A stretch of 64,000 bases of DNA from Heterodontus francisci (lineage: Eukaryota), in assembly GCF_036365525.1 (NCBI RefSeq), contig NC_090378.1:82452357-82516356 (forward strand), read 5' to 3'. The notes beneath the pieces were generated by a model that was not told the DNA's origin, did no database searches, and saw only the letters and a program-made list of their open reading frames with translations. How positions within the stretch are numbered: the first letter of the stretch is position 1; each line of letters begins with the position of its first letter. Positions 7,609 through 63,537 of the stretch are shown in pieces. The translations under genes were made by a program, and so were the position numbers.

Positions 7609-10600
7609 CATAGAATGGTTACAGCACAGAAGGAGGCCATTTGGCCCATCGTGTCTGTGCCAGCTCTCTGCAGGAGCAATTCACCTAGTCCCCACTCCTC
7701 TACCCTTTCCCCGTAGACCTGCAATTGTTCTCTTCTAATTATCTAATTCTCTTTTGAAGGCCTTGATTAAATTTGCCTCCACCACACTCGGGCAGTATAT
7801 TCCAGATCCTAACTACTCATTGCGTAAAAAAGATTTTCCTCATGTCGCTGTCGCTTCTTTTGCCAATCACCTTAAATCCTCCTATTTCTGAATTCTTCCT
7901 CTAATGAGAACAGGTGCTCCCTATCTACTCTGTCCAGACCCCTCATGATTTTGATCAGCTCTATCAAATCTCCTCTTAATCCTTCTCTTCTCCAAGGAGA
8001 ACAGACCCAGCTTTTCTAGCCTATCCACATAACTGAAGTTTTTCATCCATGGAACAATTCTTGTGAATCTTTTCTGCATCTTCTCTAATGCCTTCACATC
8101 CTTCCTAACGCGTGGGGCCCAGAAATGAGTTGAGGCTGAACCAGTGTTTTTTTACAGTTTTATCATAACTTCCTTGTTTTTGTACTCTATGCCCCTATTT
8201 ACAAAGCCCAGGATCCCGTATGCTTTATTAACTGCTTTCTCAACCTGCCGTGCCACCTTCAATGATTTGTGTCCCTCTGCTCCTGCACCCCCTTTAGATT
8301 TGTACCCTTGAATTTATATTGCCTCTCCTCATTCTTCCTACTAAAATGAACCACTTCACATTTCTATGCATTAAATTTCATCTGCCACTTGTCTACCCAT
8401 TCCACCATCCTGTCTATGTCCTCTTGAAGTTTATCACTATCCTCCTCACAGTTCACAATATTTTCAAGTTTTATGTCATCTGCAAATTTTGAAATTGTGC
8501 TCTGTACACCCAAGTCTAGATCATTAATATAGATCAAGAAATGCAGTGGTCCTAATACTGATCTCTGGGGAACCCCACTGTAATACCTTCCTCCAGTCCA
8601 AAAGACAACAGTTCACCAGTACTCTCTGTTTCCTGTCACTCAGCCAATTTTGTATCCATGCTGCTACTGACCCTTTTATTCCATGGCTCTAACTTTGCTG
8701 ACAAGCCTGTTATGTGGCACTTTATCAAATGCCTTTTGGAAGTCCGTGTACACCACATTAACCTCGTTGCCCTCATCAACCATCTGTTACCTCATCAAAA
8801 AGCTCAAGCAAGTTAGTTAAACATGATTTGCCCTTAAGAAATCTGTGCTGGCTTTCCTTAATTAATCCACATTTGTGCAAATGACTTTAAATTGTGTCCC
8901 GAATTATCGTTTCTAAAAGCTTTCCCACCACTGAGGTTAAACTGACTGGCCTGTAATTGCTGGGCATATCCTTACACCCTTTTTTAAACATGGATGTAGG
9001 ATTTGCAAATCTCCAGTCCTCTGACACCATCACTGCATCTAAGGAGGATTGGAAGATTACGGCTAGTGCTCTGTAATTTCCTCCCTTACTTCTCTCAGCA
9101 TCCTAGGATTCATCTCATCCAGTTCTGGTGACTTTAAGTACAGCCAGCCTATCTGGTACCTCCGCTTCATCAATTTTTAGCCCATCCAGTGTCTCAACTA
9201 CCCTCTCTTTCACCGTGACTTGGGCAGTATCTTCTTTGGTCAAGGCAAAGTACTCATTTAGTACCTCAACTCTGCCTCCTGCCTCCATGCTCCCTAATCA
9301 TCCCCACTCCTCCTTTTACCACTCCTTTACTATTTATATGCCTATAGAAGACTTTTGGATTTTTTTTATTCATTTGTGGGATGTGGGCGTCGCTGGCTAG
9401 GCCAGCATTTATTGCCCATCCCTAATTGCCCTTAAGTAGGTGGTGGTGAGCTGCTGGCTTGGACTGCTGCAGTCCTTGGGGTGCAGGCATACCCACAGGG
9501 CTGTTAGGAAGGGAGTTCCTGAATCTTGACCAGTGACCGTGAAGGGACAACGATATAGTTCCAGGTCAGGATGATGTGTGGCTTGGAGGGGAAGTTGCAG
9601 GTGGTGGCGTTTCCATGCATCTGCTGCCCTTCTCCTTCTAGGTGGTAGAGGTCATGGGTTTGGAAGGTGCTGTCGAAGGAGCCTTAGTGAGTTGCTGCAG
9701 TGCATCTTGTAGATGGTACACACTGCTGCCATGGTGCATCGGTGGTGGAGGGAGTGAATGTTGGTAGAATGGGTGCCAATCAAGTGGTCTCCTTTGTCCT
9801 GGATGGTGTCGAGCTTCTCGAGTGTTGTTGGAGCTGCATCCATCCAGGTAAGTGAAGAGTATTCCATCACACTCCTGACTTGTGCCTTGTAGATGGTGGA
9901 CAGGCTTTGGGCAGTCAGGAGGTGAGTTACTCGCCGCAGAATTCCCAGCCTCTGACTGCTCTTATAGCCACTGTATTAATGTGGCTGGTCCAGTTCAGTT
10001 TCTGGTCAGTGGTAACCCCCAGGATGTTGATAGGGGATTTAGCAATGGTAATGCCGTTGAATGTCATGGGGAGATGGTTAGATTCTCTTGTTTGAGATGG
10101 TCATTGCCCAACACTTGTGTGGCACGAATGTTACTTGCCACTTATCAGCCCAAGCCTGGATGTTGTCCAGATCTTGCTGCATATGGACATGGGCTGCTTC
10201 AGTATCTGAGGAGTCACGAATGATGCTGAACATTGTGCAATCATCAGCGAACATCCCCACTTCTGACCTTATGATGGAGAGAAGGTCATTGATGAAGTAG
10301 CTGAAGATGGTTGGGCCTCGGACACTACCTTGAGGAACTCCTTGTATGTTAGCTGCCAGTCTCTTCTCATACTGTCTCTTTGCTGCTCTTATTTGTTTTA
10401 TTCACTTCCCCTCTGAACCTTCTATATTCAGCCTGGTTCTCAATTGTATTATCCACCTGGCATCTGTCATATGTACACTTTTTCTGCTTCATCTTACTCT
10501 CTATCTCTTTCATCAGCCAGGGAGCTCTGACTGATCGCCCTACCTTTTCCCCCTTGTGGGAAGGTACCTTGACTGTATCCAAACTATCTCCTCTTTAAAG

Positions 10601-22989: not shown

Positions 22990-23282
22990 GCAGAAATATA
23001 TAAACTGACACTGCAATGCTGTATTGAGAGAGTGCTGCACTGTCGGAAGTGAGGAAGTGTCCTGTTTGGTAGTTAAACCTTCCTGTCTACCCTTTCGGGT
23101 GGACTTAAAAAACCTCATGGCACTAACATTATCTGGTCATGATCGCTTGCTGTCTGTGGGACCTTGCTGCAGTTCTTAGATTACAAAGTGACTACACTTT
23201 TAAGTGTCTTGTTGGCTGTAAAGCACTTTGGGACGTTCTGAGGTCATGAAAGGCGCTACATAAATGCAAGTTATTTTCTTTT
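22990..23282 (+). mobile_element. Deu-domain SINE (SacSINE1/AmnSINE1-like), internally deleted
   Basis: gtgctgcactgtcgga...caaagtgactacactt...aggcgctacataaatgcaag; related copies at 31555, 32240, 45380, 49895. Confidence 0.7.
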
Positions 23283-23617: not shown

Positions 23618-24481
23618 TTATTCGAACTGATTTCTCCGCTTCTCTCTGTGTTGTAGAGAATAGTTCTCAGTTTGGGGAAATTCTGTAGATGCTTGTCGAT
23701 GATTTTGCTGAATTGCAGCCTCGTTTTCTTTAGGAATCACCGACACCCGATCCACAAACTTTTGCTTCATCTTCTCCGTCTGCTGCTGCAGCTCCTGCTG
23801 TTTCACAATAGCGTCAGAGTTTCTCTTTTGAAACCTCCTGTAAATGGGGATGGAGGCGATGGTCTGAATGCACTTATCCAAAGTCTGGTGAGATTTCTGC
23901 TGATTAAACAGGAACCGTCTGAAGAGGCGGTTAATCCGCAGGGTTTGATCTCTCTGAATCGTGGCTTCTTCCCACAGTTTTAACACCCGGTCATGCTCAT
24001 TGGTCAGATTCCTTACCTGACTCTGAGCTGCTTGGAGACGATCTTCTAAAAGCTTTCTAACATTTTCCGCCTCAGCCAGATCCGAGGCCATTTGATCTAT
24101 TTCCTGGTGTAACCTGGTATTTTCTTGCAGGAGATTCTTGCATTGTTCCGCCCTCTCCTTCAGTTCTTTTACTACCTCCCTGGTCAGTTTGTTCCTGAGT
24201 CTGGGGTTGGCATCTAGCTGCAGCTCGGGTTGGAGTTTTTTGATAGTTTTATTCAGGCTCTTGTTCTCCGAGTTCAGGGTTTTGATCTTTTCCTTCAGTT
24301 CACGGATTTGTGCTCTCGTCGCCGTCTCGATCATTTGCAATTTATCTCGGCTGATTTCCCCTTTCTTCGACGCTTCGTCTCTTTCTTTCTTGTATTTTTG
24401 TAAGAGTTTCTTGACCTCAGACTTGTTCAGCGTGTTTCTGTGTGGGACAAAGCCCCGGGTCTCCCCCTTTGGGCCGGACAT
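23618..24481 (-). CDS. Uncharacterised coiled-coil protein, single coding exon, 287 aa from ATG at 24481 (MSGPKGETRGF...)
   Basis: Uninterrupted ORF rich in E/K/Q/R/L heptads; ATG in gaaATG context 7 nt after a good acceptor; candidate 90-nt 5' UTR intron 24578-24489; doubled AATAAA at 23560-23551. Confidence 0.75.
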   Translation of the reverse strand: MSGPKGETRGFVPHRNTLNKSEVKKLLQKYKKERDEASKKGEISRDKLQMIETATRAQIRELKEKIKTLNSENKSLNKTIKKLQPELQLDANPRLRNKLTREVVKELKERAEQCKNLLQENTRLHQEIDQMASDLAEAENVRKLLEDRLQAAQSQVRNLTNEHDRVLKLWEEATIQRDQTLRINRLFRRFLFNQQKSHQTLDKCIQTIASIPIYRRFQKRNSDAIVKQQELQQQTEKMKQKFVDRVSVIPKENEAAIQQNHRQASTEFPQTENYSLQHREKRRNQFE

Positions 24482-24919
24482 TTCAAATCTGAGTTTGGGA
24501 CAAACATAGAGAAATGAGTTTGACAGACACATTATACGCCCGTCCCTCTTTGGTTTAAGTTTAAAAATGTACGAATACCTTTCTTCCAAGTTTAGGAGAC
24601 CCTGGTGTTATTCAAGTGGAATGCTCATTGACTGTAATTACAATACTGCTGTCCTCAAATCCAGTCATCTAGCGATAACCCTTCATATTTATTTGAAAAT
24701 AATATTAAGTGATCGGTGTTCTCACTAGCTAAACTGTTTCCACTGGTAGGTGGGTCTATAACCAGAGGACACGGATTTAAAGTAACTGGCAAAAAAAAAG
24801 AGAAATGAGAAGAAGTTTATTTAGGCAGTGAGTTATGATTCGGAATGCGCTGCCTGAAAGGTTGGTGGAAGCAGATTCAGTAGTAACTTTCAAAAGGGAA
24901 TTGGATAAATACTTGAAAG

Positions 24920-33254: not shown

Positions 33255-34291
33255 TTTATAAATTCATTCATGGGATGTGGGCGTTGCTGGCCAGGCCAGC
33301 CTTTATTGCCCATCCCTAATTGTCTTGAGAAGGTGGTGGTGAGCTGTCTTCTTGAACCGCTGCAGTCCTTGTGAGGTAGGTACACCCACAGTGCTGTTAG
33401 GAAGGGAGTTCCAGGATTTTGACCCAACGACAGTGAAGGAACGGCGATATAGTTCCTAGTCAGGATGATGAGTGACTTGGGGGGGGGGGAACTTGCAGGT
33501 GGTGATGTTCCTATGCATGTGCTGCCCTTGAGGTGGTAGAGGTCACGGGTTTGGAAGGTGCTGTCTAAGGAGCCTTGGTGCGTTGCTGCAGTGCATCTTG
33601 TAGATGGTACACACTGCTGCCACTGCGCGTCGGTGGTGGAGGGAGTGAATGTTTGTGGATGGTGTGCCAATCAAGCAGGCTGCTTTGTCCTGGATGGTGT
33701 CGAGCTTCTTGAGTGTTTTTGGAGCTGCACCCATCCAGCCAAGTGGAGAGTATTCCATCACACTCCTGACTTGTGCCTTGTCGATGGTGGACAGGCTTTG
33801 GGGAATCAGGTGAGTTACTCGCTGCAGGATTCCTAGCCTCTGACCTGCTCTTTTTTATTCTTTTTTTTAATACATATTTACAAAAATAACTTTATTAATA
33901 ACAGAAAAGTAAACCAAAACTCAAATTAAAATGCCATTCTCGGTGTCGATGATGCGCTCCAGTCCCTGCGGTGCCCACCGGTCGCGGAAGGCCTCAAGCG
34001 TTCTGACCTGCTCTTGTAGCCATGGTATTTATATGGCTACTCCAGTTCAGTTTCTGGTCAATGGTAGCCCCCAGGATGTTGATAGTGGGGGATTCAGCGC
34101 TAGTAATGCCATTGAATGTCATGGGGAGATGGTTAGATTCTCTCTTGTTGCAGATGGTCATTGCCTGGCACTTGTGTGGCTCAAATGTTACTTGCCACTT
34201 ATCAGCCCAAGCCTGGATATTGTCCAGGTCTTGCTGCATTTTTACCCGGACTGCTTAGTATGTGAGGAGTCGCGAATGGTGCTGAACATTG
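33255..34291 (-). mobile_element. Truncated LINE of the tRNA-headed family, host of two nested insertions; continues at 37518-37672
   Basis: MEYSPLGWMGAAPKTLKKLDTIQDKAA, QQDLDNIQAWADKWQVTF; sequence resumes in register after each insert. Confidence 0.92.
33853..34001 (-). mobile_element. 149-bp 3' stub of an L1/Tx1-type LINE with a 14-bp TSD
   Basis: TSD TCTGACCTGCTCTT at 33839-33852 and 34002-34015; minus strand TLEAFRDRWAPQGLERIIDTENGILI*, then AATAAA and an A-rich tail. Confidence 0.8.
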
Positions 34292-37200
34292 GGGTAGGCG
34301 GTGGTGTTGTGGTATTATCACTGGACTAATAACCTAGAGACCCAGGGTATTTCTCTGGGGACATGGGTTCGAATCCCACCACAGCAGAAGGTGGAATTTG
34401 AATTTAATTAATAAATCTGGAATTAAAAAGCTAGTCTAATGATAGTCATGAAACCATTGTCGATGTTGTAAAAACCCATCTGGTTCACTAATGTCCTTTA
34501 GGGAAGGAAATCTGCTGTCCTTACCTGGTCTGGCCTACATGTGACTCCAGACCCACAGCAATGTGGTTAACTCTTACATGCCCTCTGAAATGGCCTAGCA
34601 AGCCACTCAGTTGTACCTAACCGCTACGAAGTCAATAAAAAGGAATGAAACCGGATGGACCACCTGGCATCGACCTAGGCACCGGAAACGACAACGGCAA
34701 ACCCAGCCCTGTCGACCCTGCAAAATCCTCCTTACTAACATCTGGGGGCTTGTGCCAAAGTTGGGAGAGCTGTCCCACAGACTAGTCAAGCAACAGCCTG
34801 ACATAGTCATACACACCGAATCATACCTCACAATGTCCCAGACACTGCAATCACTATCCCTGGGTATGTCCTGTCCCACCAGCAGGACAGACCCAGCAGA
34901 GGTGGTGGCAGAGTGGTAAACAGTAGGGAGGGAGTTGCCCTGGAAGTCCTCAACATCGATTCCGGATCCCTTGAAGTCTCATGGCATCAGGTCAAACGTG
35001 GGCAAGGTAACCTCCTACTGATTACCACGTACCGCCCTCCCTCAGCTGATGACTCAGTACTCCACCATATTGAACACCACTTGAAGGAAGCACTGAGGGT
35101 GGCAAGGGCACAAAATGTACTCTGGGTGGGGGACTTCAATGTCCATCACCAAGAGTGGCTCGGTAGCACCACAGCTGGCCGAGTCCTAAAGGACATAGCT
35201 GCTAGACTGGGTCTGCGGCAGGTGGTCGGGGAACCAACACGAGGGAAAAACATACTTGACCTCGTCCTCACCAATCTGCCTGCCGCAGATGCTTCTGTCC
35301 ATGACTGCATTGGTAGGAGTGACCACCGCACAGTCCTTGTGGTGACGAAGTCCCGCCTTTACATTGAGGATACCGTCCATCGTGTTGTGTGGCACTATCA
35401 CCGTGCTAAATGGGATAGATTTCGAACAGATTTAGCAATACAAAATGCTGTGGGCCATCAGTAGCAGCAGAATTGTACTCAACCACAATCTGTAACCTCA
35501 TGGCCCAGCATATCCCCCACTCTACCATTACCATCAAGCCAGGAGACCAACCCTGGTTCAATGAAGAGTGCAGGAGGTCATGCCAGGAGCAGCACCAGTC
35601 ATACCTCAAAATGAGGTGTCAACCTGGTGAAGCTACAACACAGGACTATCTGCGTGCCAAACTGCATAAGCAGCATGCGATAGACAGAGCTAAGCAATCC
35701 CATAACCAACAGATGAGATCTAAGCTCTGCAGTCCTGCCACATCCAGCTGTGAAAGGTGGTGGACAATTAAACAACGAACTGGAAGAGGTGGCTCCACAA
35801 ATATCCCCATCCTCAATGATGGGGGAGCCCAGCACATCAGTGCGAAAGATAAGGCTGAAGCATTTGCAACAATCTTCAGCCAGAAGTGCCAAGTTGATGA
35901 TCCATCTCAGCCTCCTCCTGAAGTCCCCAGCATCACAGATGCCAGACTTCAGCCAATTCGATTCACTCCGCGTGATATCAAGAAACGACTGAAGGCACTG
36001 GATACTGCAAAAGCTATGGGCCCTGACAATATTCCGGCAATAGTACTGAAGACCTGTGCTCCAGAACTTGCCGCGCCCCTAGCCAAGCTGTTCCATTTCA
36101 GCTACAACACTGGCATCTACCCTGCAATGTGGAAAATTGCCCAGGTATGTCCTGTACACAAAAAGCAGGAGAAATCCAACCCGGCCAATTACCACCCCAT
36201 CAGCTTACTCTCAATCATCAGTAAAGTGATGGAAGGTGTCATCAACAGTGCCATCAAGCGGCACTTGCTTAGCAATAACCTGCTCAGTTTGGGTTGCGCC
36301 AGGGCCATTCAGCTCCTGACCTCATTACAGCCTTGGTTCAAAAATGGACAAAAGGGCTGAACTCCAGAGGTGAGGTGAGTGACTGCCCTTGACATCAAGG
36401 CAGCATTTGACTGAGTATGGCATCAAGGAGCCCTAGCAAAACTGAGGTCAATGGGAATCAGGGGGAAACCCTCGGCTGGCTGGAGTCATACCTAGCGCAA
36501 AGGAAGATGGTTGTGGTTGTTGGAGGTCAATCATCTGAGCTCCAGGACATCACTGCAGGAGTTCCTCAGGGTAGTGTCCTAGGCCCAACCATCTTCAGCT
36601 GCTTCATCAATGACCTTCCTTCAATCATAAGGTCAGAAGTGGGGCTGTTCGCGGATGATTGCACAATGTTCAGCACCATTCGTGACTCCTCAGATACTGA
36701 AGCAGTCCGTGTAGAAATGCAGCAAGACCTGGACAATATCCAGGCTTGGGCTGATAAGTGGCAAGTAACATTCGCGCCACACAAGTACCAGGCAATGACC
36801 ATCTCCCCTTGACATTCAACAGCATTACCATCGCTGAATCCCCCACTATCAACATCCTGGGGGCTACCATTGACCAGAAACTGAACTGGAGTAGCCATAT
36901 AAATACGGTGGCTACAAGAGCAGGTCAGAGGCTAAGAATCCTGAGGTGAGTAACTCACCTCCTGACTCCCCAAAGCCTGTCCACCATCTACAAGGCACAC
37001 TTGTAATACTCTCCACTTGCCTGGATGGATGCAGCTCCAACAACACAAGAAGCTTGACACCATCCAGGACAAAGCAGCCCGCTTGATTGGCACCCCATCT
37101 GCAAACATTCACTCCCTCCACCACCGACGCACAGTAGCAGCAGTGTACCATCTACAAGATGCACTGCAGCAATGCACCGCAGCAATGCACTAAGGCTCCT

Positions 37201-37517
37201 TAGACAGCACCTTCCAAACCTGCAACCTCTACCAACTAAAAGGACAAGGGCAGCAAATACATGGGAACACCACCACCTGCAAGTTGCCCTCCAAGTCACA
37301 CACCACCCTGACTTGGAACTATATCACCGTTCCTTCACTGTCGCTGGGTCAAAATCCTGGAACTCCCTTCCTAACAGCACTTTGGGTGTACCTACCCCAA
37401 ATGGACTGCAGCGGTTCAAGAAGGCAGCTCACCACCAGCTTCTCAAGGGCAATTAGGGACGGGCAATAAATGCTGGCCTGGCCAGCGTCGTCCACATCCC
37501 TAATGAATTTTTTTTAA
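34292..37517 (+). mobile_element. Full-length CR1-group LINE with a tRNA-derived 5' head and a single, now frameshifted, APE endonuclease-RT ORF (~34590-37456)
   Basis: TSD AACATTG (34285-34291 / 37518-37524); A box 34302-34312, B box GGTTCGAATCC 34366-34376; ILLTNIWGL, YRPP, GDFN, SDH, GVPQGSVLGP, FADD motifs. Confidence 0.92.
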
Positions 37518-39789
37518 AACATTGCGCAATCATCAGCGATCATCCCCACTTCTGACCTTATGATTGAAGGTCATTGATGAAGCAGCTGAAGATGGTTGGG
37601 CCTAGGACACTACCCTGAGGAACTCCTGCAGTGATGTCCTGGAGCTCAGATGATTGACCTCCAACAACCACAGTGTGATACTTTTTATATGTATTTACCC
37701 AGGGTGCACTTACTTGGATCTGAACTTAGTCCTTGAAATTCACTTGTGAAATTCTACACAAAATCATGTAATATAACGTTTAATCCACTCATGAACATTT
37801 TGTGAAGATTAGCATTTTTGCATAAAGTTCAGCTTTTCAAAAAGTTTAATTATTTGCTAACACACACATTTAACACAATTAAGTAAATCTGTACATTAAT
37901 ATTCACTAGTAAAGAAAAAAATATTCTAAGACAATGATCAAACAACTTTTTACCAAATAAATTTTGTGGAGTATCAGAGAAAAACATTTACAGTCTGCAA
38001 CAAGTACATCCTTTGTAAGACCATGAAAAAGTAGAACAGAAAATCAAAGCCATCACAATGTGAGAATAATCCCAAAACGTAATTTAGAGTTTAGTCAGCT
38101 TGGAGCTCTACAACAGTCAAGTGTCCTGGTGTTCCATTGACCAGACTTCTTTGAAGTTTTTCTTTAATTATGTAACCTAAGTTACATTGATTGTTTAGTC
38201 TGAAGAGCCTTCCCAATTACTGAGACATCAGTGAAAGAATCTGCAAGCAAACACAGAATTTTTCACAAAGAATGCAGAGAACTGACTTTTGATGTTTTCA
38301 AGATTATGAATTAATTGACAAAACATTGACTCAGGTGCATTTTCAATATGGTGAAGAGGAGGTCAGTTAATCATTTCAGAAGTTCAAAGCAAGAAACATC
38401 TTGGAAATTAAGTAGTCAGGGATATTTTTATATGAAGGATAATAGATTTGTATTATAAGTTACCAGACGAGGCCATTGAAACCAACTGTATAGGCTAGGT
38501 TAAGAGACATTTAGATGTGTTTCTGAAGAGAAATGCACTGCAGGATATGGTAATTAGGAAGTGGGGTTGTTATCAATCGAAAAAGGATAGATAAATGGCC
38601 TTTCCTGTTTCTAAAAGCTCTGATATCACATCATAATAAATTTATTTAAAATACCTAAATTTTCTCATTAGCAAAACTTTCTGGCTTAAAATTTAACAAA
38701 AAGGGGAAAATGTTTGGCAGTGAGATCATCTTCACTGATCAGAGAACTCACCCTATATAGGGGAACCTAACAGAACCAACTATCAAGCATCCCTGTTCTC
38801 CTGGTATATCACTGTCTCACCAAAAGCTGTTGAGTAACTGCTGCCGACAGGGCAGAGGCAACTTTTAATCAAGCACAAAGAATAAAGAGGATACAGTGGA
38901 ATATATTTTATAAAAGAAATTGAACTTTATTAATTTTCATAACTTCTGACAACTTGCTTTCAGGATAGGGTAGTAGAGGTACAGGCTGTTGAGTTTCTAA
39001 TATGAGATAAGTAACTACATATCCAAAAACCTTCCTCCCCAACTCCTCACATTAGACTCAAAAATCATAAAGCTGACCTGAAATTCTGAATATGCAATTC
39101 TGCAGGTATTATAGCAGTTTAATTTACCAATCTCAAAAGAAAAAGATAATAACTGAGAAGTGAACGTATTTTTTAAACTGGAAACACTGGTCAATTTTGG
39201 AATGTAAACATGTTGAATGTGAAGAGAGCCAATGTGAATAAGCTTGAAACAATCATATCAAATTTTAGTTTCAAATTTTCTCCTCTCCTGAAAGTGGTGG
39301 GGTAGGTTTCTACAGAGTTGTCAGCAGCTACTCCACTTTAGGGTGCATCAAAGCCAAGCCTGATCCGTTCCTATCTGGTATTCACCGATGCACTTTCCAC
39401 CGGGCATTACTGCAAAGTGATGATGGACAGAAACCCTGGCTGGTATTTTTTCCACTTCTCTACTCCAGAAACATTGAGGCCAATTAAACAGCACCTGCTA
39501 TTCCCTAGCTGAGATTAGCTAAATCAGCAAAGACTTGAAACCTTCCTGTTTTATGTGTGTCAGTAACACAGTTAACCATTGAGCTATTGGACAGCCTACT
39601 ATATTAAGATTTTTAAATTAGAAACCACCAGCCAGTTTTTGGACTGAATCTAAGGTAGAAACACAATGTGATCAAAGTTTAAACAATTGTAATCAAATTG
39701 AGATGTTATAATTATGTTTCTTGGTCAATTACCTGCTACCAGTCCCTCTTTCCCAGGGTATGAGGCTTTGGAAACACTCACCTCGCAGG

Positions 39790-39888: not shown

Positions 39889-39944
39889 CTGGGGAACAGC
39901 AACAAAATCATTTTAAAATTATTGTAGAACTAAGTTTTTTAAAT

Positions 39945-40313
39945 TCTTTTCATGGGATGTGGGCATCACTGGCAAGGTCAGCATTTATTGCCCATCCCTA
40001 TTTACCCTTGACAACTGAGTGGCTTGCTAGGCCATTTCAGAGGGCAGTTAAGAGTCAATCACATTGCTGTGGGTCTGGAATCATGTGTAGGCCAGACCAG
40101 GCAAGGACAGCAGATTCCTTCCCTAAAGGACATTAGCGAACCATATGGGTTTTACAACGTTTCATAGCACCATTACTGAGATTAGCTTTCAATTCCAGAT
40201 TTTTTTATTTATTAATTCAATTTAAATTCCACCAACTGCCATGTGTCCCCAGGGCATAGCCTGGGCCTCTGGAAAACTAGTTCAGTGACATTACCACTTT
40301 GTCACCATCTCCC
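39945..40313 (-). mobile_element. SINE made of the 5' head/core plus 3' tail of the 34292-37517 LINE
   Basis: Colinear with 34292-34613, then jumps to 37443-37510 at ...ctcagttg|tcaaggg...; B box deleted in this copy. Confidence 0.88.
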
Positions 40314-40354
40314 CCTGTTCCCATTTTAAACATATGCTGGGTGAGTTCATTTCG

Positions 40355-40887: not shown

Positions 40888-43800
40888 GCTTTTGCGAGCA
40901 GCAGCTTTGACAGAACGAAGTGCGGAGCGGACTTTCAGCTGAGCGGTCAATTTCAAAAAGTTACAAGTTAATCCCCTTTTGTTTCGGAGGACCAGGGGAC
41001 TGCTGGGTAAGGGAAAACTATTTATTTGGGCAGTGGCAGTACCCGAGACACTACACGTGTAGTGTCTCCCACCCACCCTCCTCCTCTAACCAAAAAAAAA
41101 GGACTCTGGTGTGTTGATAAGGTAAGCTTTTTATTTAAAAAGTTCAGTCCGTCGGATTGCTAAGCGAACAAGTTTTGACTTTTTTTTTTAGTTTGGTTTT
41201 TCAGTAGATTTATTGGGAATCTAGAATAGTGGGAATGGAGGTGAAGGCAGTTGTATGTTCCTCCTGCAGAATGTGGGAGGTAGGGGTCGCCAAGAGTGTC
41301 CCTGCTGACTGCATCTGCGGGAAGTGCACCCAACTCCAGCTCCTCGCAGACCGCGTTAGGGAACTGGAGCTGGAGCTGGATGAACTTCGGATCATTCGGG
41401 AGGCGGAGGGGATTATTGACAGGAGTTATAGGGAGGCAGTCACACCTCAGGTAAAAGAAGTAGGTAGATGAGTTACCGTCAGGGGAAGGAAAGGGAACCA
41501 GCAGGCAGTGCAGGGATCCCCTGTGGCCGTTTCCCTCAACAACAGGTATACCGTTTTGGATACTGTTGGGGGGGACGACTTACCAGGGGTAAGCAGGTCT
41601 CTGGCACAGAGTCTGTCCCTGTTGCTCAGAAGGGAAAGGGGAAGAGGAGCAGAGCATTAGTCATTGGGGACTCCATAGTTAGGGGAACAGATAGGAGGTT
41701 CTGTGGGAACGAGAGAGACTCATGGTTGGTGTGTTGCCTCCCAGGTGCCAGGGTACGTGATGTCTCCGATCGTGTTTTTGGGATCCTTAAGGGGGAGGGG
41801 GAGCACCCCCAAGTCGTGGTCCACATAGGCACCAACGACATAGCTAGGAAGAGAGATGGGGATTTAAGGCAGAAATTCAGGGAGCTAGGGTGGAAGCTTA
41901 GAGCGAGAACAACCAGAGTTGTTATCTCTGGGTTGTTGCCTGTGCCACGTGCTAGCGAAGAGAGGAATAGGGAGAGAGAGGAGTTGAACACGTGGCTGCA
42001 GGGATGGTGTAGGAGGGAGGGTTTTGGTTTCCTGGATAATTGGGGCTCTTTCTGGGGTAGGCGGGACCTCTACAAACAGGATGGTCTTCACCTGAACCAG
42101 AGGGGTACCAATATCCTGGGGGGGAGATTTGTTAGTGCTCTTCGGGGGGGTTTAAACTAAATCAGCAGGGGAATGGGAACCTAAATTGTAGTTCCAGTGT
42201 ACAGGCTGTTGAGAGTAGTGAGGTCGGGGATAAGGTTACAGGGACGCAAGAGGGCACTGGCAAGCAAGAACTTGGTTTAAAGTGTGTCTACTTCAACGCC
42301 AGGAGCATCCGGAATAAGGTGGGTGAGCTTGCAGCATGGGTTGGTACCTGGGATCCTGATGTTGTGGCCATTTCAGAGACATGGGTAGAGCAGGGGCAGG
42401 AATGGATGTTGCAGGTTCCGGGATTTAGATGTTTCAGTAAGAACAGAGAAGAGGGTAAAAGAGGGGGGGGTGTGGCATTGTTAATCAAGGAAAGTATTAC
42501 AGCGGCAGAAAGGACGTTTGAGGACTCGTCTACTGAGGTAGTATAGGCCGAGGTTAGAAACAGGAGAGGAGAGGTCACCCTGTTGGGAGTTTTCTATAGA
42601 CCTCCGAATAGTTCCAGAGATGTAGAGGAAAGGATAGCGAAGATGATTCTCGACAGGAGCGAGAGTAACAGGGTAGTGGTTATGGGGGACTTTAACTTTC
42701 CAAATATTGACTGGAAATACTATAGTTCGAGTACTTTAGATGGGTCTGTTTTTGTCCAGTGTGTGCAGGAGGGTTTTCTGACACAGTATGTGGACAGGCC
42801 AACCAGGGGCGATGCCACATTGGATTTGGTACTGGGTAATGAACCCGGCCAGGTGTTCGATTTAGATGTAGGTGAGCACTTTGGCGATAGTGATCACAAT
42901 TCGGTTAGGTTTACCTTAGCGATGGGCAGGGACAGGTATATACCGCAGGGCAAGAATTATAGCTGGGGGAAAGGAAATTATGACGCGATTAGGCAAGATT
43001 TAGGATGTGTAGGATGGGGAAGGAAACTGCAGGGGATGGGCACAAACGAAATGTGGAGCTTATTCAAGGAGCAGCTAATGCGTGTCCTTGATAAGTATGT
43101 ACCTGTCAGGCAGGGAGGAAGTTGTCGAGCGAGGGAGCCGTGGTTTACTCAAGAAGTTGAAGCGCTTGTCAAGAGGAAGAGGGCGGCTTATGTTAGGATG
43201 AGACGTGAAGGCTCAGTTAGGGCGCTTGAGAGTTACAAGCTAGCCAGGAAGGATCTAAAGGGAGGGCTAAGAAGAGCAAGGAGAGGACACGAGAAGTCAT
43301 TGGCGGATAGGATCAAAGAAAACCCTAAGGCTTTCTATAGGTGTATCAGGAATAAACGAATGATAAGAGTTAGAACAGGGCCAATCAAGGATAGTAGTGG
43401 GAAGTTGTGTGCGGAATCAGAGGAGATAGGGGAAGCGTTAAATGAATATTTTTCGTCAGTATTTACAGTAGAAAAAGAAAATGTTGCCGAGGAGATTACT
43501 GAGATACAGCCTACTAGGCTAGATGGGATTGAGATTCACAAGGAGGAGGTGTTAGCAATTTTGGAAAGAGTGAAAATAGATAAGTCCCCTGGGCCAGATG
43601 GGATTTATCCTAGGATTCTCTGGGAAGCCAGGGAGGAGATTGCAGAGCCGTTGTTGTTGATCTTTATGTCGTCATTGTCGACAGGAGTAGTGCCGGAGGA
43701 CTGGAGGATAGCAAATGTTGTCCCCTTGTTCAAGAAGGGGAGTAGAGACAGCCCTGGTAATTATAGACCTGTGAGCCTTACTTCGGTTGTGGGTAAAATG

Positions 43801-45117
43801 TTGGAAAAGGTTATAAGAGACAGGATTTATAATCATCTTGAAAAGAATAAGTTCACTTGCGATAGTCAGCACGGTTTTGTGAAAGGTAGGTCGTGCCTCA
43901 CAAACCTTATTGAGTTTTTCGAGAAGGTGACCAAACAGGTGGATGAGGGTAAAGCCGTGGATGTGGTGTATATGGTTTTCAGTAAGGCGTTTGATAAGGT
44001 TCCCCACGGTAGGCTATTGCAGAAAATACGGAAGTATGGGGTTGAAGGTGATTTTGAGCTTTGGATCAGAAATTGGCTAGCTGAAAGAAGACAGAGGGTG
44101 GTGGTTGATGGCAAATGTTCATCCTGGAGTTTAGTTACTAGTGGTGTACCGCAAGGTTCTGTTTTGGGGCCACTGCTGTTTGTCATTTTTATAAACGACC
44201 TGGATGAGGGTGTAGAAGGGTGGGTTAGTAAATTTGCGGATGACACGAAGGTCGGTGGAGTTGTGGATAGTGTCGAAGGGTGTTGTAGGGTACAGAGGGA
44301 CATAGATAGGCTGCAGAGCTGGGCTGAGAGATGGCAAATGGAGTTTAATGCGGAGAAGTGTGAGGTGATTCACTTTGGAAGGAGTAACAGCAATGCAGAG
44401 TACTGGGCTAATGGGAAGATTCTTGGTAGTGTAGATGAGCAGAGAGATCTTGGTATCCAGGTACATAAATCCCTGAAAGTTGCTACCCAGGTTAATAGGG
44501 CTGTTAAGAAGGCATATGGTGTGTTAGCTTTTATTAGTAGGGGGATCGAGTTTCGGAGCCACGAGGTCATGATGCAGCTGTACAAAACTCTGGTGAGGCC
44601 GCACCTTGAGTATTGCGTGCAGTTCTGGTCACCGCATTATAGGAAGGATGTGGAAGCTTTGGAAAGGGTGCAGAGGAGATTTACTAGGATGTTGCCTGGT
44701 ATGGAAGGAAGGTCTTATGAGGAAAGGCTGAGGGACTTGGGGTTGTTTTCGTTAGAGAGAAGGAGGAGGAGAGGTGACTTAATAGAGACATACAAGATAA
44801 TCAGAGGGTTAGATAGGGTGGATAGTGAGAGTCTTTTTCCTCGGATGAGGATGGCAAACACGAGGGGACATAGCTTTAAGTTGAGGGGTGAAAGATATAG
44901 GACAGATGTCAGAGGTAGTTTCTTTACGCAGAGAGTAGTAGGGGCGTGGAACGCCCTGCCTGCAACAGTAGACTCGCCAACTTTAAGGGCATTTAAGTGG
45001 TCATTGGATAGACATATGGATGTAAATGGAATAGTGTAGATCAGATGATCGGCGCAACATCGAGGGCCGAAGGGCCTGTACTGCGCTGTAATATTCTAAA
45101 AAAAATTCTAATTCTAA
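40888..45117 (+). mobile_element. Near-intact full-length CR1 LINE (HER1-like): 5' UTR, ORF1 (zinc finger/leucine zipper + SGNH esterase), ORF2 (APE-RT); antisense in a YIPF1 intron
   Basis: ORF1 CSSC...CGKC, zipper, IGDSIVRG, HIGTND, DGLHLN; ORF2 CVYFNARS, GDFN, SDH, QHGF, FADD; attcta-repeat tail; lesions: TGA 41469, an ORF1 frameshift near 41594, TAG 42544. Confidence 0.95.
42151..45039 (+). pseudogene. CR1 ORF2 endonuclease/reverse transcriptase with one premature stop
   Basis: One reading frame from the ORF1 junction to 45039, interrupted only by TAG at 42544-42546 (likely TGG>TAG). Confidence 0.88.
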
Positions 45118-45379: not shown

Positions 45380-45842
45380 GAAGAAAAAAAAGGAAGTCAT
45401 GCATTTATATAGCGCCTTTCATGACCACCAGACATCCCAAAGCACTTTCCAGCCAATTAAGTACTTTTTGAAGTACAGTCACAGTTGTAATGCAGGCAAC
45501 ACAGCAGTCAATTCATGCACAGCAAGCTCTCACAACCAGCAATGTGACATTGACCAGACAATCTGTTTTTGTGATGTTGATTGAGGGATTGTTATTGGCC
45601 AGGACATTGTGGATAACTCCACTGCTCTTCTTCGAAATAGGGCCATGGGATCTTTTACGTTACCTGAGACAGCAGACAGGGCCTCAGTTTAACATCTCAT
45701 CCAGAATACGAACCTCCAACAGCGCAGTACCGCACTGGAATGTCAGCTTTGATTTTTGTGCTCAAACCCTAGAGTGGGACTTGAGCCCACAACATATTTG
45801 ACTCAGAGTGAGTGTGCTATCAACTGAGGCACAGCTGACACT
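45380..45842 (-). mobile_element. Deu-domain SINE, near full length
   Basis: tRNA-like head (tgcctcagttgatagcac...gggctcaagtccc on the minus strand), Deu core and gcgctatataaatgc tail. Confidence 0.82.
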
Positions 45843-56429: not shown

Positions 56430-57100
56430 TCGCCAACTGTACACCAGGACCGTCCAACGGAGCAGCTTCTAGAAGTACTGAGGCGGCGGGTGGTTACTAT
56501 GGTGATCATTACCCCCTACACCCATTACTATGGAAAAGGTCGAGTTCCTCTGCGTTGGCATGCAGACAAGCCTAGGCCCAGGCCTCCCTCACCGCGGGCT
56601 CAGGGCCGGCCCCTCCGGGCAGCGGCCTGTGTTACCCACCCGTTATATCCGGTTCCGGCTCCGGGGGCTAATCCGAAGCCACAGCGACCCTTATTAAAGG
56701 GGCTGTCACTCCCGCAGACTTTAATACGCCGACAGATACCCTAACCGACCTTCCCCAGATCCCTGCACTTCACCGCCCAGGCTGTGTCGCACACATTGCT
56801 GATCCAGTTAATTTGTTTTTGCATTGTTTTGAATTGACCAAGGGCAGCGTTAAGGCAGCTGACGACACAAGTATTTTCTTTGGACACCACAGTTTTACTC
56901 ACTTCAGTTATATTTGGTATTCCACTCAATACATTGTTTTATCTGCATCAAATGAATTCCAGTTTTCACCTCAATATCTGGGAGGTCATCCAGAGCTTCC
57001 GCAGAATTAGCTTTCACGGAAATGATGTAGGCACAATTGAAACGTGAACATTTTTGGTGAACATCGGCAGAGCGCAGCTGCAAGGAGTCTTCCACGAATA
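56430..57100. promoter_or_regulatory. CpG-rich bidirectional promoter region between YIPF1 (-) and DIO1 (+), probably including a non-coding YIPF1 exon 1
   Basis: Local GC/CpG enrichment at about 56560-56790, CCGGAA (ETS-type) on the minus strand near 56655, minus-strand donor candidates at 56639 (gtgggt) and 56592 (gtgagg); genes diverge from here. Confidence 0.7.
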
Positions 57101-57430
57101 TGGGCAAACTGGCTGTGTACGTGGAGACTTTTGCCTTGTTGGTGTTTGTTTGTGTGCTGACATTTATAGGCAAAATTATGATGATCCCCTTTCCTGAAAT
57201 GGTGAAGAAGTTCGTGCTGAAAGTTGGGTTGAAAAGCACCATGACTCAAAACCCAAAGTTCAAATATGAAGACTGGGGACCCACATTCTTCAGTTTGCGC
57301 TTTGTGAAGATCGTGTTTAAGCACTTACTGATAAATTGTGGAGATGAAGCTTTTAAGGGTTCATCTGCTCCCAATACACGGGTCATTGACTTGGAGAATA
57401 AAGAACATAAAGTACTTGATTTCTTGAAAG
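57100..57430 (+). CDS. DIO1: Type I iodothyronine deiodinase, coding exon 1
   Basis: N-terminal hydrophobic anchor, MTQNPKFKYEDWGPTFFS and GSSAPN motifs; aaag|gtatgt donor, phase 1. Confidence 0.95.
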
Positions 57431-58341
57431 GTATGTATGAATTCCCTTAGCATTAAAGGTAAGTGGTGATAATAGGAATTCTTCTGAAAACAGTAATATG
57501 CTCAGGGTAATGGGGTTTTTGGAGTTCAGAAAATGTATTTAACCTATTCTGTGTAATCCGTGATTTAAAAATGTGACTGGATCCCTTGATGGTAAAAGCA
57601 CAATATGATTGCGGGAATGAATCCGCAAATGTGCTGGGATAAATCTGTATTGAGTTAGCTGCGGAAGCGTATTTAACGATTTTTAAAAATGATTTACGGT
57701 AAACCAATTTTACACAAATTCTGCATAAATAACTTATGTAAGTGTGCCCCGCCCGAGCTTCTGTTATCTTAACGAAGTGCAGCTGTCTGAGGAATTTTGT
57801 TATCCGCCATCAGTTTGATGTAATTCGAGCAAATACGCCCACAGCGTACAACTTTTCAAAAACAGATTGGATCTCACTGGTGTTTAGCAATCAAGCATAC
57901 AATGCTGAACTTTGGTCCAGGACTATGTGCTGAGGGACACGCTAAAACTTAAGACAGCCACTGCAAAGGCTCAATGGGGAAAGGTTGCTGTGTAACGCCC
58001 GCCGAAGTATAGAGGGGTTGGAACCCATGTAAAACCCCTGGGGCTGTATGTACCAGAAAATGTTTGATGTGTAATGTAAATGTACATTGTAAATATAACT
58101 TGAAATGGCAAGTGTGGTGAGACACCTCATGTACTGTATCGAAAGTAACTGACTTGTTATGTAATGTAGTTTTACAAATTTCACTCTCTAAATAAAGTGA
58201 AAGATGATGTGGGTGACCGCCACAGTGCAGGAGCGAGTGTGGGCCAGACCTGCACCACAGAGCACCTTGTATCTGATAACCAGTTTCTTGGGTGCAATGG
58301 AGATGGAATGCCCAGTAGGCTAATAAACATATAGCAGAAAG

Positions 58342-61187: not shown

Positions 61188-62198
61188 GTACAAAAAGATT
61201 CCCAGCAACAAAAACGTTTTGAGTTTGCTAATCTTCACTGCACTGTAATAAAACCGTATCTTTAACGTTTACTGAAGGCTAGGCGGTAGATGCCTTACTC
61301 AATATTGTACTGAGTGTATATATTCCAGGAAGGTTCCAGGTTCCACCCCCAGACTACTGCCTAGCTGATCCCAGCTGGAGCTGGTTAGTGCCTGTCAGTT
61401 AGCTAAAGAGGAGAGAAAACCTCCAGGATCTTAGCCTTAGTGTAGACATACAATCATTTCAGTGAAGTTCTTCCTTCTTAGTACTGAAATCAAAACTCCA
61501 GTTAATGCACCCTACTTTTAATTGTACCAAGCTTTTAAAATCCACAAGTGGGTCAGTGGTTGCTTAGCTTGATCTCAGCTGGGGCAGCAGTATGGGGACT
61601 GTAATTAGTTGTAACACCCCTGAATTAGAGTAGGGGAAATTGGCCATGGTTCTCTTGATTATTTTGCAGTGACCCCTTTATGGAAGTGCCTGTGCATGGA
61701 AACAGGTGAAGATAAAATTGGGTTCAGCTAGTGTCTTCCAGAGCCAGCCTGTAGGCATATCCTCTTTTGGCTCACAAATAAATAATGGCCACTTGGACAG
61801 GGTGTTCGAGTGCGGCTGCTATCCCAGGAACACTATCCTAATGAACGAGTTAATGCCCTTTACTAGGGGGAAGAAATATAAAACCAATATTGGTGTCCCC
61901 TAACCATTGCTTCCTTGTTTGCTTTATTTTCTCTCCTGCATTTACCAATCCTGGTGGCATCCTTCAGTACGTATTTAGGCCCTTTACCCAAGTTTCTTGT
62001 CAGATTAAATTTCACCTATTTTGCTTTCTTCTGTACATAAATGAAGTTTTGGAGTATTTTAGTTTGTGTTAAGTTTGACTAGTTCTACTCATTCTCAAGT
62101 TGAGAAATCACCTCAGTTGTCCATATCTACAGCAAAATGACATGGGTATGATGTAAATCTTTCCAATATTTCCTTAATTTTGATGCTATTCATTCCAG

Positions 62199-62398
62199 AT
62201 GGCTGGGCTTTCAGAAACAATGTGGATATCAAACAACATCAAACATTAAATGATCGTTTCAACGCGGCAAGGCTGTTGCTGAATGAGGAGCCACCCTGTC
62301 CAGTGGTAGTGGACACTATGGATAATGCGACTAGTGCCAAATATGCAGCTATGCCAGAGAGACTGTATGTGGTGCATAATGGCAAAATCATTTACAAG
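62199..62398 (+). CDS. DIO1: DIO1 exon 3 (exon 4 and SECIS expected beyond the window)
   Basis: ttccag| ... aag|gtaaca, 200 nt; DGWAFRNN...[10 protein letters not shown]...YAAMPERLY. Confidence 0.96.
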
Positions 62399-63537
62399 GT
62401 AACAGAGTACTTTGATACTCGTGATAATGTCCATTTATTGAATGGTTTCACTACTAGATTTTGAATTGATATTTTCTTTCTCCCCAAGCTTAGGATAATG
62501 CATTTGATTTCCAACCCTTGCTTTCCCTGAAGAAGCCAATTCATGCTGGGTTACAATTCCATAGATGTCAGCAGCCCTTTAATAATCCAGTCCAAAGCTG
62601 CTGTAATTTGACTACTGTAGAATTGTGCTTCTGGCCTGCTTGTTGTCTTGCTATGCTTTCAGTCTGTTTTCCTCAATCATAATATTCAAAAAAAAAAGAG
62701 TAAAAGCAGCAACAGACTCACAACTTTTAACTATTTTTATTATTTACCAAACTCCCATACCCTAAGAAACAAATAACTAGGGGCACAGCCATTCTTTGGA
62801 CCTATTGCTTCAATCAAATATTGGTTATTCAGACAAATCCAGGTTAGATTATGATAACCAATGAGAGGAAGATGTACCCAAGGACTGGGATGGTCATGAG
62901 CCATGCAGACAAAAGTTGTAGGAATGATTAGAAGATGGGATCGGTAAATTTATAAATATATTTGTGGATTTAATTTTCTGAATTATTGAAGCTTTTAAAT
63001 GTTACATATCTCTCCAAAAATATCATTCCTAGTGTATGTGGAGTTAGGTAGAATTTTGTTTGTGTTTGGAGAGAAAATAGAAATGTGGGGAATATTTTGG
63101 GAATAATGAAAGAAAAGAATAAAGTTGAAAGGAGAAAACATGACATTTAACCAGGGATTAAAAAGAAAATCAGCTCAATAGTCACCACATGGATGACAGA
63201 CTCAGTTCAGAGGTTTTATAAAGCTTTGAATAAAAGCTGGGAGTTTGACCTTCAATCCACATTTAGCAGCATAATCAGCCTAATTAAACTAAAATGTAAA
63301 TGAAACTACTGGCATAGATGACAAAGGAATGCTGGTTCTTAAAGCCTCTCTGAAAAACTAGCTTATACACAATATGTAGCTAAACAATTGTCGTGGTGAG
63401 TGGCATTCCTAAAATTAGCTGTATACACTCAAAATGTTCTATTGGAGCTGACCACAATCACGGAGTATATTGGTAATATGAGCCATAGGTTGTGTTTTTA
63501 CTATTTTTATTTAAGATTTTATCATGAAAGGGAACAT

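Follow-up and report, generated by a model that had tools for sequence, protein, structure and literature searches.

A candidate RNA polymerase III-transcribed autonomous LINE of sharks with a tRNA-like head and a sense strand depleted of T runs

The retrotransposon copy at 34292–37517 and its setting

A retrotransposon copy of 3.2 kb occupies positions 34292–37517 on the plus strand of the window, i.e. the 64,000-nucleotide stretch of contig NC_090378.1 of Heterodontus francisci (genome size 6.0 Gb) that was analysed here. The length of the elements of its family is 3.3 kb. The copy, its parts and the related elements of the window are the following:

34285–34291, plus strand: left target-site duplication (TSD) AACATTG, the same seven bases of the interrupted sister copy on either side
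34292–34386, plus strand: tRNA-like head, the 5' end of the family with +1 at 34292; unrelated flanks stop here in most long copies
34302–34312, plus strand: A box, family form TGGCGTAGTGG, with two changes from this form in the present copy
34366–34376, plus strand: B box GGTTCGAATCC, exact (for the consensus and copy counts, see below)
34387–34613, plus strand: AT-rich linker and conserved core, common to the SINE derivatives and not a Deu domain
34590–34598, plus strand: in-frame AUG in a strong context, Ala codon and UAG, the probable translation start
34599–37456, plus strand: single endonuclease and reverse transcriptase (RT) frame, broken here, 975 codons in the family
37456–37500, plus strand: predicted nested 3' stem-loop, also present in the SINEs, a probable RT recognition signal
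37508–37517, plus strand: T8 and residual A tail (family form T1–9 and then a short A run)
37518–37524, plus strand: right TSD AACATTG, matching the left one
33260–34291, minus strand: older truncated sister copy, the target of the insertion, interrupted at 33853–34001 and continuing at 37518–37672
37518–37672, minus strand: 5' remainder of the interrupted sister copy
9368–10342, minus strand: 5'-truncated sister copy
39935–40315, minus strand: ORF-less SINE that shares head, core and 3' tail with the LINE
41468–45039: CR1 element of the window, used as a comparison LINE

The original prediction, made from the letters of the window, described a frameshifted element with a tRNA-like head and an endonuclease–RT ORF within a single 7-bp TSD. 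The duplication was borne out: the target is the minus-strand sister copy, whose element positions 2373–2379 are found on both sides of the insertion. Both promoter boxes lie where they had been placed, the A box with two departures from TGGCGTAGTGG and the B box identical to GGTTCGAATCC. The coding capacity for endonuclease and RT was confirmed by matches to Pfam PF14529/PF03372 and PF00078, and the copy is indeed dead since its ORF is broken by eight deletions or insertions.

As had been read by eye, there is no sense-strand T4 in 34292–37507, the first one being the T8 at 37508; A4, C4 and G4 runs occur 16, 10 and 8 times, respectively. The sister copy upstream had likewise been considered free of sense-strand T4. 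The interval 33255–34291 does contain four minus-strand T4 runs (33886–33931), all of which lie within a foreign 150-nt insert separating the two LINE-matching pieces of the sister at 33260–34291, so that the claim holds for these pieces and not for the whole interval. The estimate that about five T4 runs would be expected by chance was reproduced by base shuffles (4.99), whereas dinucleotide shuffles gave only 2.35; the probability of finding none in this single copy was 0.008 and 0.066, respectively. The absence of T4 from this copy alone is weak evidence, and the strong signal sits at the level of the family. An assignment of the sister copy at 9368–10342 to an older separate subfamily was rejected, as its best matches are ordinary young copies.

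Head, reading frame and 3' end of the family

The fusion of head and ORF, which had been seen at one locus only, is the normal 5' end of the family and occurs in its older subfamilies as well, which retain head, core and ORF at 78–89% identity. When the whole element was used as a query, 18 of the 30 best loci spanned the element from positions 1–6 through the 3' end. Similarly, 27 of 29 loci selected by the head aligned from positions 1–3 into the ORF and had unrelated flanks. The 5' end was tested in an unbiased way with copies chosen by an endonuclease protein query only (n = 29 besides the present copy). Nineteen of them start at positions 1–4, nine are truncated at positions 21–411, i.e. 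in the head, the core or the start of the ORF, and one is rearranged. None of these 29 copies carries an alternative shared 5' sequence or an ORF1. The proposed lack of ORF1 was confirmed in this way, with just 307 nt lying ahead of the frame.

A 29-nt pattern spanning the core–ORF junction gave 6,794 exact matches in the genome, and its reversed control gave none. Most of 13 copies chosen by an older variant of the junction also join head or core to the ORF, at 78–93% identity and with few T4 runs; one of the 13 is a short deletion form. The fixed 5' ends, the number of junctions and the older copies together show that the fusion is neither unique nor recent. Chimeras of other small RNAs are known to arise by chance, and template switching might in the same manner have fused SINE heads with truncated LINEs, locus by locus. 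This explanation is refuted by the recurrence of one junction in both old and young subfamilies and by the lack of any other 5' end among the protein-selected copies, and we give it almost no credence.

The A and B boxes are exact in the consensus of 56 copies. The B box is also exact in 35 of the 56 full-length copies, and 13 more deviate from it by CpG decay only. The head is tRNA-like by its boxes, their spacing and its T-arm and weakly so by profile. ARAGORN detected no tRNA in the window, and Rfam provided neither a tRNA match for the present copy nor any family for the element core. A better-kept copy (L204) produced a full-length match to the tRNA clan of Rfam with 20.8 bits (E = 0.09), which is under the gathering score.

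The majority consensus was computed from 30 copies and then from 56 full-length copies (63 examined). It has one stop-free frame of 975 codons, beginning at position 308, and 935 codons of this frame are open in a natural copy (L201). The divergence of the copies from the consensus ranges from 2.9 to 5.8%. Outside CpG, private changes comprise 1,310 non-synonymous or stop changes versus 456 synonymous ones, which corresponds to a site ratio of 2.45 and to neutrality. Among the changes common to at least four copies, also outside CpG, 56 are non-synonymous and 72 synonymous, with a single stop among the 128. Since the shared changes are mainly synonymous and the private ones neutral, the protein was under selection in several source lineages. 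The 975-codon endonuclease–RT frame was thus under purifying selection and the family was autonomous, in agreement with the original prediction of an autonomous coding LINE. Its dispersed copies, fixed 3' end, 5' truncations and lack of LTRs are further LINE traits. Searches of the ESM Atlas and PDB provided only generic endonuclease–RT, L1 ORF2p and R2 matches.

The first AUG within the frame is codon 285, which lies past the endonuclease. Just ahead of the frame there is an in-frame AUG whose Kozak context is strong and which is kept in 76 of 82 aligned copies. The AUG is followed by GCC and then by TAG in 69 of the 82 copies and by a sense codon in the other 13. The genome contains 5,489 exact matches; in the first 100 of the list, the third codon was TAG in 84, GAG in 11 and CAG in 5 cases, and the sense codon was also found in older subfamilies. 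Seven shared non-CpG variants fall within 40 codons downstream of the UAG, and six of them leave the encoded residue unchanged in the ORF frame, which indicates that translation starts no later than about codon 6. The AUG that closes the core is probably the start of translation, and the UAG may be passed by read-through or by re-initiation at a near-cognate codon behind it. Eight AUGs lie upstream of the proposed start, which argues against plain scanning. Owing to these AUGs and to the dominant UAG at codon 3, translation from an uncapped RNA would require an extra mechanism.

The sense codons at the UAG position are in accordance with a division of labour, in which RNA polymerase III (Pol III) would produce the template RNA, whereas the protein would come from rare Pol II copies or from UAG-free sources. 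The UAG-bearing copies would then move in trans like long SINEs. The GAG and CAG codons among the listed matches and the 13 aligned copies with a sense codon, occurring also in older subfamilies, fit this explanation. However, the shared variants were obtained from copies that mostly bear TAG, and these variants are mainly synonymous, with only one stop, including those just past the UAG. Passengers would not have kept such a pattern, and we therefore consider the division of labour quite improbable.

The 3' end differs from the original prediction in two respects. The T8 of the present copy is not a family feature and not a terminator of the family: T runs of four or more were found in only 8 of 51 parsed tails (56 examined), 29 of the 51 contain no T or one T, and about half have a single T. 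No conserved terminator was found among the 51 parsed tails, which counts against transcription by Pol III. Nor is the TSD typical of the family. A duplication of at least 5 bp is present in only 8 of the 56 full-length copies (3.6% under a shuffled-pair null), and one of at least 7 bp in 4 of the 56 (0.4% under the null). No compensatory changes were seen in the predicted 3' stem-loop. Three AATAAA sites are tolerated in the sense strand; AATAAA-dependent tailing as in T+ SINEs was unsupported, as most aligned SINE copies read AACAAA there.

Depletion of T runs and the transcribing polymerase

Vertebrate Pol III terminates at T4. The 56-copy consensus contains no T4 and eight T3 runs, in comparison with 14 A4 and 44 A3 runs, and neither of the patterns T2VT3 and T3VT2 was found in it. 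Within the ORF, four T3 runs are present versus 12.8 expected when synonymous codons were shuffled among like residues (P < 0.001, 5,000 shuffles) and 23.4 expected under codon resampling. The corresponding expectations for T4, which is absent, were 2.07 (P = 0.08) and 4.86 (P = 0.003). Codon usage shows the same depletion: TTA is used for none of the 93 Leu residues and TTT for 4 of the 18 Phe residues. The Phe content itself is 1.9% versus a median of 4.26% in 141 homologues, of which only one, from lancelet, has a lower value; several of the nearest relatives contain 2.3–2.9% Phe. In the 56 full-length copies (181.9 kb in all), 25 internal T4 runs were counted versus 820 A4 runs, and 35 copies are entirely free of T4. 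Many of these T4 runs recur at a single CpG beside a T3. If a source without T4 had decayed neutrally, 28.4 T4 runs would be expected, close to the number found. The flanks contain 6.9 T4 per kb.

The ORFs of at least 450 codons from 63 of 80 related metagenome loci were used as controls; they are distant (at most 38% identity), partly redundant and not the nearest protein relatives. The ratios of observed to expected T3 under two nulls were 0.17 and 0.32 for the family, 0.40–1.42 and 0.66–1.25 for the 63 controls, and 1.12 and 1.05 for the CR1 of the window. The avoidance of T runs is thus far stronger than in related LINE ORFs, and the claim of a sequence without internal T4 is valid for the family consensus. 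Some results count against a role of Pol III. The T3 ratio is as low as 0.40 in T-poor control LINE ORFs, and the absence of T4 by itself misses significance under the strictest nulls (P = 0.066 and P = 0.08). Moreover, the ORF of one of the 63 controls (L081) is also T4-free, and no tRNA-like head was found in the 294 bases upstream of it. The purge of T runs is an observed property of the family, and its cause is what we infer below.

With a probability of roughly two in three, we interpret the family as an autonomous shark LINE, similar to the CR1/L2 group and lacking ORF1, which would be transcribed by Pol III from its internal A and B boxes. It is called a shark family because three named genera of sharks have gene models that include parts of the protein at 65–86% identity, and because the 5' part of the element is present under seven organism labels. 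As for the original proposal of a 'SINE-headed LINE' read by Pol III, the anatomy, the family-wide fusion, the autonomy and the purge all stood, and the polymerase itself is the interpretive step.

The life cycle would proceed as follows. TFIIIC would bind to the A and B boxes and Pol III would start at +1, consistent with the boxes and the fixed 5' end that were found. The purge of T runs from the sense strand would enable the polymerase to cross 3.3 kb, and termination would occur, in an Alu-like manner, wherever a T4 is first met in the tail or the downstream flank. The presumably uncapped RNA would be translated inefficiently, starting with the AUG that closes the core, with passage via a leaky UAG two codons on or re-initiation just behind it. 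As in established LINE biology, the protein would bind to the 3' stem-loop, nick the target and begin reverse transcription there on the short A tail of the RNA, producing the full-length and 5'-truncated copies, mostly without TSD, that were observed. Internal deletions would finally have given rise to SINEs, several times as judged from the several junctions.

The head might instead be a SINE captured as the 5' end of a LINE and used as a Pol II promoter, or the element might be read through from host Pol II transcription. The purge would then have another cause, such as the avoidance of U-rich splice, polyadenylation or decay signals. This explanation would agree with the view of LINEs as Pol II transcripts expressed in a passage of PMC5786205. 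A capped RNA would also ease translation, the AUG at 34590 being in a strong context, and many related LINEs are mildly T-poor on the sense strand. It does not account for the maintenance of exact A and B boxes in the source elements, nor for the fact that most long copies have their 5' end at the tRNA +1. No such purge is seen in the Pol II-type controls, among them the CR1 of the window, the AATAAA sites are tolerated, and a scanning ribosome would hit the eight upstream AUGs. We regard this alternative as unlikely, although it retains some weight.

In each of four RNA-type sequencing runs, all 30 bins were covered. The data are assembled contigs, three of the runs being only guessed to be RNA, and this coverage thus provides no evidence on the start, strand, cap or polymerase.

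Passages in PMC5786205 and PMC7805219 separate LINEs, which are coding and transcribed by Pol II, from SINEs, which are non-coding and transcribed by Pol III. If transcription by Pol III is true, a family of thousands of copies with a Pol III promoter and a selected 975-codon ORF breaks this textbook split. It would also represent a natural vertebrate example of a messenger made by Pol III and allow new SINEs to arise in one step, and the origin and conservation of SINE bodies would become directly testable in a single construct. In a wider and tentative reading, for which we put the odds a little below even, the SINE core would be a LINE 5' UTR serving ribosome recruitment, and the low-Phe relatives (from lancelet and other animals) might be members of a wider clade of Pol III LINEs.

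Relationships to known elements and the SINE derivatives

The family shares with CR1/L2-group LINEs an APE endonuclease and RT in one ORF, a 3' stem-loop, 5' truncation and mostly missing TSDs, as well as, according to the alignment, the absence of a C-terminal zinc finger. In contrast to CR1, L2 and Crack, it has no ORF1, carries a tRNA-type head with A and B boxes and is purged of T runs. Moreover, unlike in the CR1/L2 group, there is no free AUG ahead of the endonuclease. L2-2_CM and CR1-4_DR-like LINEs are described as partners of shark SINEs in passages of PMC5499810 and PMC3747384. In a quick RT tree of 61 rows, the element is far from the CR1 of the window and in no well-supported group; its group in this tree, which is without named L2 or Crack references, is weak (support 87) and comprises a lancelet protein and proteins without a name.

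A single-protein metagenome scan for non-shark relatives bearing the head gave none. The alignment-based metagenome scan provided 80 distant loci; no tRNA gene was present in the 60 that were scanned for it, and no match to the head, the core or the tail had an E value under 0.02. Five distant loci were obtained from prokaryote genomes and none from the viral scans.

R2 elements are co-transcribed by Pol I, released by self-cleavage and site-specific, have a different endonuclease and use an uncapped RNA with non-standard initiation. The shark family resembles R2-type single-ORF LINEs in having one ORF, no ORF1 and probably non-standard initiation; its similarity to R2 is confined to the RT core (E 1e-7).

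The features common with SINE2 elements are the tRNA-like head with A and B boxes, the conserved core, the LINE tail, the short A end and the T4-free sense strand. The family differs from them in its length of 3.3 kb and in having its own enzyme under purifying selection; the 0.4-kb derivatives, in turn, are short, non-coding and non-autonomous as SINE2 elements are. SINEs cannot encode protein according to a passage of Kojima 2018 (PMC5786205). SacSINE1 and the Deu-SINEs are also tRNA-derived shark elements with an L2/CR1-type tail. Identity with them was rejected: the head is unlike that of SacSINE1 given in the supplement of PMC5786205, and four Deu motifs taken from this supplement had no match in the 5' 450 nt when up to one mismatch was allowed. 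Nor does the element resemble a SacSINE1-like copy in the window (about 45385–45840, minus strand; best E 0.78). The core motifs of the element had no match in the published supplements searched, in the parts covered, the Meta, V and CORE domain consensuses lying outside them. No description of a tRNA-headed autonomous LINE was found among the publications listed by the literature searches; Repbase, Dfam and SINEBase, which may contain the family, were outside this search. A literature search for AmnL2, a Dfam name, yielded nothing of relevance.

The SINE at 39935–40315 is 0.4 kb long and has the head, core and tail of the LINE. At least 39 further copies of it, at 81–84% identity, are among the matches listed. 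Its main core–tail junction has 695 exact matches in the genome, and the same join was found in contigs of four sequencing runs. Another 55 joins of core and tail, with breakpoints of at least four other kinds, were detected by a gapped pattern, and some of these alternative joins still contain the codons at the very start and end of the ORF. One copy with such an alternative join (L276) is 96% identical to the young LINE at either end. Since the promoter is at one end and the RT signal at the other, any internal deletion yields a ready SINE. Repeated internal deletion of the LINE would be a simpler account of the sequences than a single insertion of an ORF into a SINE, and the LINE may thus be the parent of several SINEs, a direction that we infer. 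An ancient capture of a SINE at the origin of the LINE lineage is possible.

The derivatives are analogous, as internal deletions of an autonomous LINE, to the bipartite non-autonomous LINEs and SIDEs of RTE, Vingi, Ingi and R2, in which the two ends of such a LINE, 5' and 3', are joined, as presented in a section of PMC5786205. Zenon-derived Persaeus is a further bipartite element formed by internal deletion (PMC6740152). In the Repbase-wide comparison reported in a section of PMC5786205, only RTE and Vingi 5' regions occurred in SINE bodies. In the Kojima model, as outlined in that section, the deletion comes first and the small-RNA head is acquired later, whereas in the shark family the head is already part of the autonomous parent and deletion alone gives a SINE.

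T runs in the sister copy and the CR1 control

The interval of the sister copy, the older minus-strand member of the tRNA-headed LINE family into which the element was inserted, contains four runs of four T (T4), all of which fall inside a foreign insert. This insert, which may be Tx1/L1-like, is bracketed by a 14-bp duplication. The CR1 copy of the window served as a control for the T-run comparison; its ORF2 retains 830 open codons, plus a piece upstream, and contains 14 T4 runs.

33853-34001, minus: 3' fragment of another LINE (~150 nt) with an A-rich tail, interrupting the sister copy
41468-45039: CR1 element in which part of a GDSL-esterase ORF1 survives and much of ORF2 is still open

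Tails, deletion points and relatives of the LINE family

In most copies of the LINE family, the T and A residues of the tail ahead of the flank add up to 9-12, as though A had been swapped for T starting at the 5' side. The same T-plus-A pattern was found in the tails of the SINE copies, the ORF-less derivatives. The core end (34597-34613) and the ORF end (37425-37444) loosely resemble each other and can be aligned, and this sequence likeness may have guided the recurrent internal deletions. A short deletion form, L306, also occurs in an older subfamily that is represented by the genome copies L299, L300 and L306 and has a differing head variant (73-80% identity). The phenylalanine content is likewise low (1.5-2.5%) in the closest protein relatives of the LINE (P0053, P0046 and P0206), one of which comes from lancelet.

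Other features of the window

The SacSINE1-like copies of the window are unrelated to the tRNA-headed LINE. The frames at 57061-57450 and 62141-62464 are candidate exons of an iodothyronine deiodinase gene.

About 45385-45840, minus: SacSINE1-like Deu-SINE copy
Near 23180, 31562, 32325 and 49959: further SacSINE1-like Deu-SINE pieces
57061-57450 and 62141-62464: open frames
23618-24607, minus: open frame of 329 codons encoding a charged-residue-rich, coiled-coil-like sequence
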